A stretch of 64,000 nucleotides of DNA, from positions 806,001 through 870,000 of the forward strand of contig NW_027271684.1 of NCBI RefSeq assembly GCF_040938485.1, read 5' to 3'. Shown piece after piece: positions 19,679-37,482 of the stretch. This DNA is from Diadema antillarum. Its lineage: Eukaryota. Each line of letters begins with the position of its first letter. The first letter of the stretch is position 1. Position numbers and translations under genes: made by a program. The notes under the pieces were generated by a model. The model had not been told where the DNA came from. It ran no database searches and saw only the letters and a list, made by a program, of their open reading frames with translations.

Positions 19679-20071
19679 AGTAGTATTATGTTGTCTCGGG
19701 TGCCATAACTTAATTCTATTGTTTAGGACAATAGAATATGAAATATGAATATGAATATGATAGATCGATGAGTTATGAAATATGAATATGGGATATATAA
19801 ATATGAAATTATGAGTATGAATAAGATATAAAATCAAATCAAAAAATTAATCAAATAATTAACGTGATAGGAGAACTGGAAAATGAATGACGTCACTCAT
19901 TTAAATATTCATAATGACGTCAGGAGCTTTATTCATTTGCATAAATGACGTCATAGGTTGTTTTGAGAAGAGAAAACAATAAAGAAAAAAAGAAAGGTGT
20001 ATAGTGAATAGAGGGTGAACGAGTTGGGGCATGAAAGTGACGTCATGACATAGAACGCTGCATGAAGGTGT
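19679..20071 (+). repeat. Left terminal inverted repeat (about 393 bp)
   Basis: Reverse complement of 37082-37482, apart from about 4 substitutions, one hexamer-unit indel and a poly-A length difference. Confidence 0.96.
19888..20045. promoter_or_regulatory. CRE/ATF cluster plus octamer inside the TIR (mirrored in the right TIR)
   Basis: TGACGTCA at 19888, 19915, 19946 and 20038; ATTTGCAT at 19935-19942. The motifs are seen directly; function is inferred. Confidence 0.6.
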
Positions 20072-20215
20072 GCAGGAGTACGTGTGATTTATACATACAG
20101 TGCATTCGTATAATATATATATATATATATGGTTATATATACTCCTTCCCTCTGAGAAGGAAACAGACACAATTTTGTCAACCAGACGAAACAGTCCTAC
20201 AAGAACGAGAGAAAA

Positions 20216-20761
20216 ATGAAGCAGAGTTATTACAACTACGTGTATAACACGCCATCAGCCCCATCGCCTGAAGGCTCGCAAGACATGAGCAGTATTCAGG
20301 GGGAAGTCGGGAGTGATTGCACCGTGGACTATTCTCCAGACCGTCTATATATGGAGGAGGGAACATGTTTTCCCCAGTCGTCTAAGCGGAAAAACATGGA
20401 AGAAGGTGAACATCGTGTTGATCTTTCACGTAAAAGAATGAGAGGAGGTGGAAACGTGCAAGGAAAGAAGACCACGGGGAACCCCGAACCTACGAGCCAT
20501 ACTCCGGGAACGAAAGATGAGGATGATTCAAAAATTATTTGCAAAGTGTCCATCAGCGTGAAACCGGACCGCCTGAAGTACATCGTGGCCAAGACGTTCC
20601 GCAGCAAGACTTACATTGACATTCGTGAGTACTTTGAGAAAAACCACGAAGAACTACCTACCAAGAAGGGAATCACGCTCACCATGGAGGAATTCAGAGC
20701 TTTTACATCGGTGATTAAGAACATCAACGACGCCATTCAAGGGCAACATGTGAGAGGGTGA
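20216..20761 (+). CDS. Polinton accessory protein with C-terminal PC4/Sub1-like ssDNA-binding domain, 181 aa
   Basis: The C-terminal KYIVAKTFRSKTYIDIREYFEKNHEELPTKKGITLTMEEF matches the PC4 signature (Y-V-S-V..F.GK..IDIREY.....P..KGI.L...QW). The N-terminal half is low-complexity with basic patches. ATG is in an AAAATG context and AATAAA lies downstream. Confidence 0.85.
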   Translation: MKQSYYNYVYNTPSAPSPEGSQDMSSIQGEVGSDCTVDYSPDRLYMEEGTCFPQSSKRKNMEEGEHRVDLSRKRMRGGGNVQGKKTTGNPEPTSHTPGTKDEDDSKIICKVSISVKPDRLKYIVAKTFRSKTYIDIREYFEKNHEELPTKKGITLTMEEFRAFTSVIKNINDAIQGQHVRG

Positions 20762-21224
20762 AGTGGATCGGCTGAACGATGGGAGAAAAAAAAAGGAAGG
20801 CTATACAAGAAAGATTATTTTAAATCAAGATGAATACAGAAAATAAAGGCCGAGATTCAGGAGACCGATGGAGAAATTATGTGGACTTAACTGATTTGAA
20901 AAAAAAAAACAATTTATGTTATTTTATTCTTTTTTTTAATGTCAATGTCAAAGGAGAATGAGGAATAATAATAAAAAATACATCATATAGAGAACTTGTT
21001 TCATTTTACCGTCCTTATTACGTTGTTCCTTATAGATATTTCGTTGAAAAATAACTATGAGACATTGATTGGATAACTATGAGTGAGCATATGTGTTTGG
21101 ATGGGTATTTGTTTGCCTCTAAGATCAAAATGTACTGAATTGCATGCTAGTGAGAGAAGAGGAGGGGGGAAGTGAGTGAGTATGCATGATGAAGAGATGA
21201 GGTGTTTTTCAGTCCAAGTCCCCA

Positions 21225-22216
21225 GTCCATTAACGCAGTACAAATATCGGTTAATGCGCACTGTAAAGAAAGTTTGCGAGGTGTAATAGTAAAGAACGAT
21301 GACTGTTATTTGAGGACTCAAGAACAAGTTTATTGTCTCTCCATTAAGAGAACTCCGGACTAAAAAACACCTTTGTCGACAGTCCAAGTCGTCAGTCCAT
21401 TAACGTAGTTCAAAAAAAAAATGGTTAATACGCACTGTAAAGAAAGTTTGTTAGGTACAATAGTAAAGAACGATGACTGTTATTCGGGGACTCAAGAACA
21501 AGTTTATTGTCTCTCCATTAAGAGAATTCCGGACTGAAAAACACTTTTGTCCCCTGTCCATTAACGCAGTACAAATATAATACGCACTGTAAAGAAAGTT
21601 TGCTAGGTATAAAAGTAAAGAACGATGACTGTTATTTGAGGACTCAAGAACAAGTTTATTGTCTCTCCATTAAGAGAACTTCGGACTAAAAAACACCTTT
21701 GTCGACAGTCCAAGTCGTCAGTCCATTAACGTAGTTCAAAAAAAAATTGGTTAATACGCACTGTAAAGAAAGTTTGTTAGGTACAATAGTAAAGAACGAT
21801 GACTGTTATTCGGGGACTCAAGAACAAGTTTATTGTCTCTCCATTAAGAGAACTTCGGACTGAAAAACACTTTTGTCGCCTGTCCATTAACGCAGTACAA
21901 ATATAATGCGTACTGTAAAGAAAGTTTGCTAGGTATAATAGTAAAGAACGATGACTGTTATTTGAGGACTCAAGAACAAGTTTATTGTCTCTCCATTAAG
22001 AGAACTCCGGACTAAAAAACACCTTTGTCGACAGTCCAAGTCGTCAGTCCATTAACGTAGTTCAAAAAATTTGTTAATACGTCCTGTAAAGAAAGTTTGT
22101 TAGGTACAATAGTAAAGAACGATGACTGTTATTCGGGGACTCAAGTGCAAGTATATTGTCTCTCCATTAAGAGAACTCCGGACTGAAAAACACCTTTGTC
22201 CACAGTCCATTAACGT
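21225..22216. repeat. Higher-order tandem array: six 158-170 bp units alternating A/B (three dimers of about 326 bp)
   Basis: GTCCATTAAC unit starts at 21225, 21395, 21556, 21721, 21882, 22047 and a partial at 22205. Diagnostic A and B variants strictly alternate. Confidence 0.95.
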
Positions 22217-22646
22217 CGAACGATTCAAAGTTAATCCTTACTCAAAAGAATTCTTCCAAGTAGGTCTACGTAAGAACAATGGATGGAACTTCCTATGCGG
22301 GACCTATGTGCAAGTACAGAATTGTTTGTCCTCCACTTGAGAAAATAATCCCTTATTTATTGATCGGTCCTTCCCGATGACTTACATGTCTCAGCTTGAA
22401 AGTAAAGTGACGGGAAAATGGAGCGAGAGTTAGATAAAAAGGCCTGAGCAAAACCCAGTTCTCCACATTTCTTCCTATTTTATACACGAGCTATATCGTG
22501 TGGTCATTGCTCTGTAACTTTACGTTTATACAGAATCTAGACGCCAAGAGGGGTGACTGAAACCATTATGACTGTATTTAGCGTTTGAATACTTGTCAAG
22601 TTTGCACTTTTTTAGAGTTAACTTGTTACTCACTTTAAGCCGTAAA

Positions 22647-35877: not shown

Positions 35878-36076
35878 GCTCCTGTCTTCTCTCTCCTCTG
35901 ACAAAACTCATCAATGAACAGCAAGTCACTCACCCCATTCATTTAAAAGACACTGAATATAAAAAGACGAAGAAAGCAAGTGTTTGTACATTAATGCTAT
36001 GTGTTTATTGATCACCTAGTCTACATAAAAAAGTCAAGTTGTCGGAAATATACGTATAAATGTTTTACACATGAAA

Positions 36077-36463
36077 TTAAGTTGCTATTCTGTTTACATC
36101 CACAGTATACAATTGACAGAACCCATCTAATATAACGTGCATTATCAGGTGCAATTTACTACGTTTGGGGGGTTTACAGGGCCATGGTATATCATATCGT
36201 CGCAGTTCATTCGTGAACAAGAGTAACAGTTCATCTTTACATCGTTCCTCCAGGTTAGAAAGCATATACATTTTCAAGAAATAACAAACGGCTGTCATTC
36301 CACGTTCCAGTACATTCTTTCGTGTCTCATTTCCAATACAGTTTGAAAGTATAATCTTGACGAAATCTTCAAATGAGTCGTCTGGTTCTAGCTCGACAAT
36401 TTCCACGTTTTCAAATTCTTCCAATGCCATGATGCGTTGACTAGTGGAAAATATTCTTGACAT
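36077..36463 (-). CDS. Polinton ORFan, 128 aa (may extend upstream as a 295 aa overprinted ORF to 36964)
   Basis: From MSRIFS the composition is globular and helical. The upstream 167 codons overlap the 153 aa ORF in another frame. Confidence 0.6.
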   Translation of the reverse strand: MSRIFSTSQRIMALEEFENVEIVELEPDDSFEDFVKIILSNCIGNETRKNVLERGMTAVCYFLKMYMLSNLEERCKDELLLLFTNELRRYDIPWPCKPPKRSKLHLIMHVILDGFCQLYTVDVNRIAT

Positions 36464-36534
36464 ATCCACATTTAAACAGGATTTTGTAGTAGTCTGTCGA
36501 ATGATGATTGACAAGACATCCCTCCATGAAGTAT

Positions 36535-36996
36535 CTAAAGCGATGATGTCTTCATGACGCTGTCTGACAGGTCGCTCTCCTCCCCCATAGCACGGTACAC
36601 GACGCGCACAGCGGCGTCCAGTCCTTCGAGGTGACGAGCCAGTTTTTCCCGTCTCTCTTTCAGATCCTCCACTGTCTCGTTCCTGAGCAGATATTTCATG
36701 TACTCCGTAAACATGCATGGATCCATCAGTTTCGGATTCATCCACATCACCCTGGCTGCATGAGGATAATACTTGGCTACCTTCTGAGGGTCCAAGTACG
36801 TAGCCGCTTGTCGAACTTTCAGTTGTGGGTCGTCCGACACTAACTGGTCGATGTAGCTCGATGGGGTTTTGTTCAGTTCCTTGAACAATTCCACCAACGT
36901 AAGGTACTCTATCAGCATGAGTAGGTCTGCTTTCTCCGCAGTTTTTTGAAACTCCTTGCACCATTCACTATCAGGATCAACGTCAGACTGAGACAT
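36535..36996 (-). CDS. Polinton ORFan next to the right TIR, 153 aa, predicted all-helical
   Basis: First ATG downstream of the TIR, protein-like composition, and a coiled-coil-like C-terminus (VEDLKERREKLARHLEGLDAAV). No family recognised. Confidence 0.7.
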   Translation of the reverse strand: MSQSDVDPDSEWCKEFQKTAEKADLLMLIEYLTLVELFKELNKTPSSYIDQLVSDDPQLKVRQAATYLDPQKVAKYYPHAARVMWMNPKLMDPCMFTEYMKYLLRNETVEDLKERREKLARHLEGLDAAVRVVYRAMGEESDLSDSVMKTSSL

Positions 36997-37081
36997 GATA
37001 TACCTCTTATGACTAAACCAACCTTTTGCAAAGTGATAACAAGTATGGTCGACTGCGAGAATTTATACATCCTCCTGACAT

Positions 37082-37482
37082 ACACCTTCATGCAGCGTTC
37101 TATGTCATGACGTCACTTTCATGCCCCAACTCGTTCACCCTCTATTCACTATACACCTTTCTTTTTTTTTCTTTATTGTTTTCTCTTCTCAAAACAACCT
37201 ATGACGTCATTTATGCAAATGAATAAAGCTCCTGACGTCATTATGAATATTTAAATGAGTGACGTCATTCATTTTCCAGTTCTCCTATCACGTTATTTAT
37301 TTGATTAATTTTTTAATTTGATTTTATATCTTATTCATACTCATAATTTCATATTTATATATCCCATATTCATATTTCATAACTCATCGATCTATCATAT
37401 TCATATTCATATTCATATTTCATATTCTATTGTCCTAAACAATAGAATTAAGTTATGGCACCCGAGACATCCTAATACTACT
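37082..37482 (-). repeat. Right terminal inverted repeat (about 401 bp)
   Basis: Reverse complement of 19679-20071; ends ACTACT. Confidence 0.96.

Follow-up and report, generated by a model that had tools for sequence, protein, structure and literature searches.

A full-length Polinton/Maverick in Diadema antillarum DNA, likely a copy of a recently multiplied sea-urchin family

The DNA considered here, termed the window, is a 64,000-nucleotide stretch of the Diadema antillarum assembly (contig NW_027271684.1, positions 806,001 to 870,000 of the forward strand), and it carries at 19679-37482 a Polinton/Maverick element of 17,804 bp with zero N. All positions are those of the window. The names PM, PZ and PW are assigned by position alone, and relatives in loci are counted among 82 loci that were fetched, of which 2 are viral and 80 were retained from 479 metagenome matches. 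The features, from left to right, are these.

19673..19678: left target-site duplication (TSD), CTCGAC, flanking the left end of the element
19679..20071, plus strand: left terminal inverted repeat (TIR), 393 bp, with the AGTAGT terminus and four TGACGTCA palindromes
20216..20761, plus strand: PC4/p15-domain accessory protein, 181 amino acids (aa; PF02229, E 2.6e-15; relatives in 2/82 loci)
21218..22215: 326-bp tandem array between the PC4 gene and PolB, 3.1 copies, 95% matches, subunits of ~150-175 bp
22647..27554, plus strand: protein-primed family B polymerase (PolB, pPolB), 1635 aa (PF03175, E 1.6e-47)
28094..28735, plus strand: A32-like packaging ATPase, 213 aa (Pfam; best fold match the packaging NTPase B204 of Sulfolobus turreted icosahedral virus 2, STIV2)
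28774..29118, plus strand: conserved basic 114-aa protein in the PM position (relatives in 32/82 loci)
29134..29886, plus strand: conserved 250-aa protein in the PZ position (relatives in 7/82 loci)
31540..32073, minus strand: adenain/Ulp1-type maturation protease (PRO), 177 aa (PF00770 and PDB matches)
32118..33452, minus strand: major capsid protein (MCP), 444 aa (model with a pLDDT, the score predicted for the local distance difference test, of 86.5)
33489..33935, minus strand: basic 148-aa protein in the PW position (25% Lys plus Arg, Gly-x-Gly motifs; relatives in 67/82 loci)
33938..34714, minus strand: putative minor capsid (penton) protein (mCP), 258 aa (relatives in 58/82 loci)
34777..35877, minus strand: rve integrase (INT) with a C-terminal chromodomain, 366 aa (PF00665, E 2e-12)
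36077..36430, minus strand: possible 117-aa accessory open reading frame (ORF), the tail of a 295-codon frame, unconfirmed
36535..36996, minus strand: 153-aa accessory protein (9 relatives at E<=0.001, the best 74% identical)
37082..37482, minus strand: right TIR, 401 bp, with four mirrored palindromes of presumed cAMP-response element (CRE) type
37483..37488: right TSD, CTCGAC, flanking the right end of the element

The ends are those of a Polinton/Maverick insertion, combining TIRs, a conserved end motif and a 6-bp TSD. The sequence AGTAGTATT is read inward at both termini and includes the AGTAGT end motif, and the match of the six letters on the two sides (CTCGAC/CTCGAC) has a chance probability of about 3.5e-4. 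Between the TIRs there are 4 substitutions, of which two lie close to the tip, and 2 slippage indels, one of 6 bp and the other of 2 bp. An initial annotation had reported both TIRs with about this divergence, a perfect TSD, and nine core or conserved genes free of stops and frameshifts; its coordinates are exact, and all nine genes are single uninterrupted ORFs. They lie on the plus strand in the order pPolB, ATPase, 114-aa protein and 250-aa protein, and on the minus strand as integrase, 258-aa protein, 148-aa protein, MCP and protease. Pfam recognizes PolB, the A32 ATPase, the adenovirus-type protease, rve with a chromodomain, and a PC4 domain among the element's proteins.

The polymerase has the layout of a protein-primed PolB, with exonuclease and palm motifs both in place: a basic, low-complexity N-terminus is followed by a predicted terminal-protein region, a viral OTU (vOTU) domain, cysteine-rich zinc fingers, the exonuclease, a VSR-like insert and the palm. 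A profile search matched it to the phi29 polymerase (E 4.5e-7) and to E. coli Vsr (1vsr, E 0.003), the latter match corresponding to the VSR nuclease insert that is a feature of the pPolB2-VSR subgroup. The terminal-protein region is predicted by analogy with PMC11161782, which proposes that the vOTU domain sets the terminal protein free; the OTU label, which gives the N-terminal arrangement of adintoviruses, comes from that source together with known motifs. Conservation of PolB, MCP and the ATPase was assessed against the 120 best-listed relatives of each (of 345, 2381 and 784 hits, respectively). PolB retains 69/69 invariant columns and 137/139 of those conserved at >=95%, and the vOTU residues C498 and H597 recur in 112/112 and 115/115 aligned relatives.

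The fold modelled for the MCP is that of a double jelly-roll capsid protein, and in a Foldseek comparison it matches the capsids of iridovirus, Paramecium bursaria chlorella virus 1 (PBCV-1), Sputnik and mavirus (E about 1e-15). It keeps 10/10 invariant columns and 73/74 at >=95%, and its closest named relatives, from Lytechinus, Diadema and Strongylocentrotus, are 62-81% identical. A phylogeny of the kind suggested in the initial annotation groups the MCP with sea-urchin elements: a quick tree built from 38 rows places it within a 12-row clade with a Shimodaira-Hasegawa-like approximate likelihood-ratio (SH-aLRT) support of 100, and all 7 named rows of that clade are sea urchins. The branching of the clade departs from the host genera, a pattern that would fit old paralogues and host switches equally. 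The 258-aa gene adjoins INT in every long locus among those fetched, and its product belongs to an Atlas neighbour cluster that is 64% viral, most commonly Preplasmiviricota (score 0.98); it is likely the minor capsid (penton) protein. The basic 148-aa protein is likely a core protein cleaved by the protease.

The packaging ATPase, another hallmark of these elements, retains 15/15 invariant columns and 42/44 at >=95%. The protease, assigned through PF00770 and PDB matches, keeps its catalytic histidine and cysteine and has an atypical third triad position; His53, Gln100 and Cys107 are each present in 59/59 relatives, and position 68 is aligned with the third triad residue of pS273R of African swine fever virus (ASFV), as assigned in PMC9920524. 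In the rve integrase the DDE residues are shared with relatives almost throughout (D81 in 39/39, D142 in 43/43, E176 in 42/43).

The TIRs also carry a candidate expression signal. Palindromes of the form TGACGTCA, taken here to be CRE/ATF-type sites, stand in the left TIR at 19888, 19915, 19946 and 20038 (span 19888-20045), and four perfect ones span 37108-37267 in the right. Of the 13 that the window contains, 8 are in the TIRs; with the two TIRs counted as a single observation, each has four where the frequency elsewhere in the window predicts 0.03. Neither these palindromes nor a likely second small accessory ORF figured in the initial annotation. These clusters likely act as promoters; no paper on CREB sites in TIRs was found in the literature searched. 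The first plus-strand AATAAA past the ATPase, 114-aa and 250-aa genes is at 29894, and the first on the minus strand past the protease and MCP genes is at 30796. The spacer between the converging blocks (29900-31500), which is AT-rich and contains an 8-bp tandem run and degenerate direct repeats of 120-176 bp, is likely a shared termination region.

Close copies of the element are present in other data. Nineteen listed sequencing runs from 7 studies contain the stretch or part of it, and 8 contain half or more. Four of them, X1, X2 and X3 (organism A) and X4 (organism B, a second species label), were compared with the window over 22300-39430, a region that excludes the left TIR, the PC4 gene and the array. 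Over the listed pieces, contigs of X1 differ from the window at 19/14658 positions (0.13%), those of X2 at 16/13600 (0.12%) and those of X3 at 14/10177 (0.14%), and the X4 contigs are 0.62% different, that is, 99.4% identical. In one X3 contig the sequence that begins directly beyond base 37482 is that of another flank, which indicates a further insertion site. Element contigs have depths of 42-47 in X1, where flank contigs have 3.5-6.1 (7-14 times), and of 207-248 in X2, where the flank contig has 16.9 (about 12-15 times). This 7-15-fold excess hints at several copies. The initial annotation had named a read-depth excess as a check, and it is seen in both runs as a ratio that yields no copy count. 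The depth excess, the small differences from sister contigs and the second flank in one run bear out the description of the element as an intact, young Polinton, and its family is likely young and multi-copy.

The best explanation, which we consider likely, is that the nine open core genes belong to a full-length Polinton/Maverick, a copy of a recently multiplied sea-urchin family that would replicate by protein-primed synthesis, package its genome and reinsert. The defining Polinton features tested are present; for the minor capsid protein there is a conserved ORF at the expected position. The element may be virion-competent and reactivatable, as the initial annotation supposed. In such a family, the CRE clusters in both TIRs would drive two converging transcription units ending near 29894 (plus) and 30796 (minus), whose shared 3' ends would probably be resolved by splicing. 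The terminal-protein part of pPolB would prime synthesis at the AGTAGT ends and be released by the vOTU domain, as proposed in the literature on the family. The ATPase, the major and minor capsid proteins, the basic core proteins and the protease would assemble double jelly-roll particles around the replicated genome, as the recent constraint on the capsid genes described below would imply, and the element's own rve integrase would reinsert it and generate the 6-bp duplication.

Several observations weigh against this interpretation. The TIRs diverge from each other by about 1%, exceeding the divergence of the body from sister contigs, and are therefore no clean clock. Logan contig depth is not equal to copy number, and X2, whose flank is identical over 1492 bases, is possibly the source sample and hence not independent. 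The per-site differences discussed below rest on 40 of 132 difference rows listed. The initial annotation stated that all catalytic residues are present, which holds for the exonuclease, polymerase, vOTU, Walker A/B and integrase DDE residues, all matching relatives, and does not hold for the third triad position of the protease, which is Cys68, a residue shared with 1/59 relatives. It had also named hidden inactivating substitutions as a concern. Alignment with relatives finds invariant columns mostly kept, and two departures: the integrase keeps 36/37 invariant columns and departs at E318 (0/43 locus relatives), and the ATPase carries a proline at residue 153, within the predicted helix 151-159, that is private to this copy (0/119 relatives) and possibly damaging. 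At that site the contigs of all four compared runs differ from the window. Pro153 may impair packaging or may be tolerated.

The least unlikely alternative is that the copy was dead on arrival or has been silenced, its ORFs open and its insertion non-functional, with activity residing elsewhere in the family. Sixteen sites among the 40 listed rows separate the window copy from X1, X2 and X4, and four genes contain 12 of them: 6 are non-degenerate positions, 4 are four-fold and 2 are partly degenerate. A substitution at any of the first six necessarily changes a residue; 5 are in PolB and 1 is in the ATPase, the last giving the proline in the predicted helix. However, the five PolB sites fall in variable or poorly filled columns, and Pro153 belongs to the helix's opening turn in the model, a place where proline can be accommodated; the model stays confident (pLDDT about 90). 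The two long X1 contigs, moreover, show no private difference in INT, mCP, PW, PRO, PM or PZ, and testing the private changes for selection gave no significant result (p 0.06-0.22). On the reading of a recently multiplied, functional family, the private proline may slightly impair the window copy.

Somewhat less probable is a germline-only, self-synthesizing transposon, dependent on pPolB and integrase, in which the capsid genes are still intact from a recent infectious phase and particles are no longer made. The atypical protease position is consistent with this, being found also in the long X1 and X2 contigs that span the gene and so not private to the window copy. Yet the sole relative that shares Cys68, L001 (39% identical), is also the nearest protease among the 59 locus relatives, which would make the residue an old lineage trait; because it occurs both in the X1/X2 contigs and in the nearest relative, a lineage variant is likelier than decay. 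The divergence between species labels also argues against this alternative. In X4 a mostly non-coding piece has 19/1589 differences and the MCP-PW piece 5/1773 (Fisher p 0.002); the PolB pieces, with 22/2426, are likewise less conserved than the MCP-PW piece (p 0.017). The capsid region has therefore been constrained even over this short divergence. Capsid-gene constraint has served as an argument for virion-based spread of fish Mavericks (PMC8097293). In PolB, four-fold sites account for 8/19 of the listed X4-only differences, where 13% would be expected (p 0.002).

The near-identity across the two labels may come from horizontal transfer or introgression, and sister species that stand very close, or a difference in labelling, would produce it too. 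A bolder proposal, that the family is now moving between sea-urchin species as virus particles, would draw together the 99.4% identity, the multiple copies in both labels, the capsid constraint and the CRE-rich TIR promoters; it is offered tentatively and is rather doubtful. If true, it would make the family a tractable natural system in which virions of a canonical animal Maverick could be observed for the first time.

Distinctly unlikely is that the depth excess represents free linear viral genomes of an ongoing infection, instead of or beside many integrated copies. The element is nearly whole in X3, a run with just 43 million letters of contigs in all; the element's contigs are long and nearly invariant, and a related element occupies a unit-length contig of 17,375 bp in metagenome-type assemblies (ENA/Logan), with 81% identity in PolB, 87% in the ATPase and 90% in the MCP cluster (proteins P0121, P0241 and P0376). 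Collapsed multi-copy repeats would look identical, however; the similar ratio in two runs suits a stable chromosomal copy number, and X3 has host-type flank at the exact terminus. That the element is domesticated and retained for a host function, for which every ORF being open might speak, is scarcely credible given complete TIRs, a perfect TSD, the likely multiple copies and the other flank in X3; to our knowledge, domestications retain single genes and not whole elements.

The remaining genes and sequences of the element are less sharply defined. The PC4/p15-domain protein likely binds single-stranded DNA, as its domain suggests. The 153-aa protein, for which family and structure searches gave no match, is by its relatives a member of a genuine small family. 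The 117-aa ORF had no Pfam, PDB or IMG/VR match; a Bcl-2-like resemblance guessed by eye was unsupported by the searches, and the first ~180 codons of its 295-codon frame, which overlap the 153-aa gene, were taken as a shadow frame and rejected as a gene. The one array subunit tried folds no better than shuffles (z +1.0), and near the array a 12-base insertion is present at 22404 in X3 and X4 contigs. An Rfam search found nothing at E<=0.1, and an NCBIfam search added merely IS-type integrase matches and weak chance matches.

Variant structures were also observed among the contigs. An X4 contig with a depth of 100.7 joins 25460 (in PolB) to 37237 (in the right TIR), skipping 11,776 bases; with only 34 letters on its short side, it is either a derivative that arose by deletion or a match due to chance. 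In X3, 122 unrelated letters precede 36881 in one contig, which suggests a copy that is truncated or a variant with the right end alone in common. An organism C shares 0.15-0.17 of the stretch and a marine metagenome 0.09, neither of which was used. Where the right flank is unique (38316-38887), cover is near zero in X4 at 90% likeness and absent in X3; since such gaps are no proof, they were not counted in favour of horizontal transfer. There is no RNA run among the listed runs, which says nothing on expression. IMG/VR yielded no close relative, its two loci standing at 48% and 27%.

Elsewhere in the window, a DIRS/Ngaro-type retrotransposon on the minus strand (57394-60288), with an open tyrosine recombinase (332 codons), a reverse transcriptase (522 codons) and an upstream frame, looks young. 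The right flank of the Polinton contains host MITE-like (miniature inverted-repeat transposable element) repeats at 40243-41349, 39546-40130 and 37690-38040, their types being a palindromic family with a 16-bp unit, a 71-bp inverted pair and a short repeat of very high depth.

Intact animal Mavericks are already well documented, and this element adds one more example; whether canonical animal Mavericks form virions is not settled by one more intact copy. Its added value lies in a family that is apparently very young and is seen in several individuals and apparently in two species. Sea urchins offer accessible gametes and embryos, so that an observation on natural samples of this young family could address the virion question. 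Two small details, the TIR with its four CREs and the protease's unusual triad residue, are open to testing.

Comparison with known systems places the element firmly among its relatives. The 134 intact Mavericks described from 17 vertebrate species (Barreat & Katzourakis 2021, PMC8097293) have the same inward-facing modules, pPolB-ATPase-PM-PZ and INT-mCP-PW-MCP-PRO, the same accessory regions near both ends, the (AGT)2 end motif and a 6-bp TSD, and are of similar size, with a mean of 16.9 kb against 17.8 kb here and a mean TIR of 402 bp against about 400. Unlike them, the present element has an invertebrate (likely echinoid) host, a PC4-domain gene and two further accessory ORFs, the 326-bp array and the atypical protease triad position; its CRE clusters were not found mentioned in the literature searched. 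With adintoviruses or Polintoviricetes (Starrett 2021, PMC8502044), names treated as synonyms in 10.64898/2026.06.19.733378, it shares an OTU-bearing PF03175 PolB, an FtsK/A32 ATPase, adenain, hexon, penton and rve integrase; it differs in that Pfam finds no PLA2 domain and no Oncoid or Bcl2 gene was identified. Both free-ended and integrated adintovirus forms have been described (Starrett et al., PMC8502044); no free-ended form of this element was seen. As to particles, a 2026 preprint states that no virions of canonical animal Mavericks have been observed, and no paper showing them was found in the literature searched; the nearest cases are divergent relatives from the occlusion bodies of entomopoxviruses (PMC11296320), and coral polintoviruses express their capsid genes (PMC11131425).

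In the pPolB2 Polintons that Jeong 2023 (PMC10748475) describes from molluscs and a marine nematode, a VSR nuclease lies between exonuclease and palm, as the VSR-like insert does in this element. Here it occupies PolB residues about 1050-1160 (window 25794-26130), and its key residues are common to 117-120 of the 120 closest listed PolBs. Carriers include coral, mollusc, fish, frog, gecko and beetle records, a wider range than the mollusc and nematode one given in PMC10748475; since the insert is present in nearly all of the closest PolBs, it is no narrow marker here. The nearest named relatives are the sea-urchin Polinton proteins in NCBI for Lytechinus, Diadema and Strongylocentrotus, labelled 'F54H12.2-like', which carry host-gene annotations and no description of an element. 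Families from S. purpuratus are reportedly present in Repbase; no paper devoted to sea-urchin Polintons was found in the literature searched, and families may be described in subscription papers, supplements or Repbase. With these proteins the element shares its MCP clade, its MCP differing from theirs at no fewer than 19% of residues, and over residues 360-1635 its PolB has 69% identity with a protein of Lytechinus variegatus.

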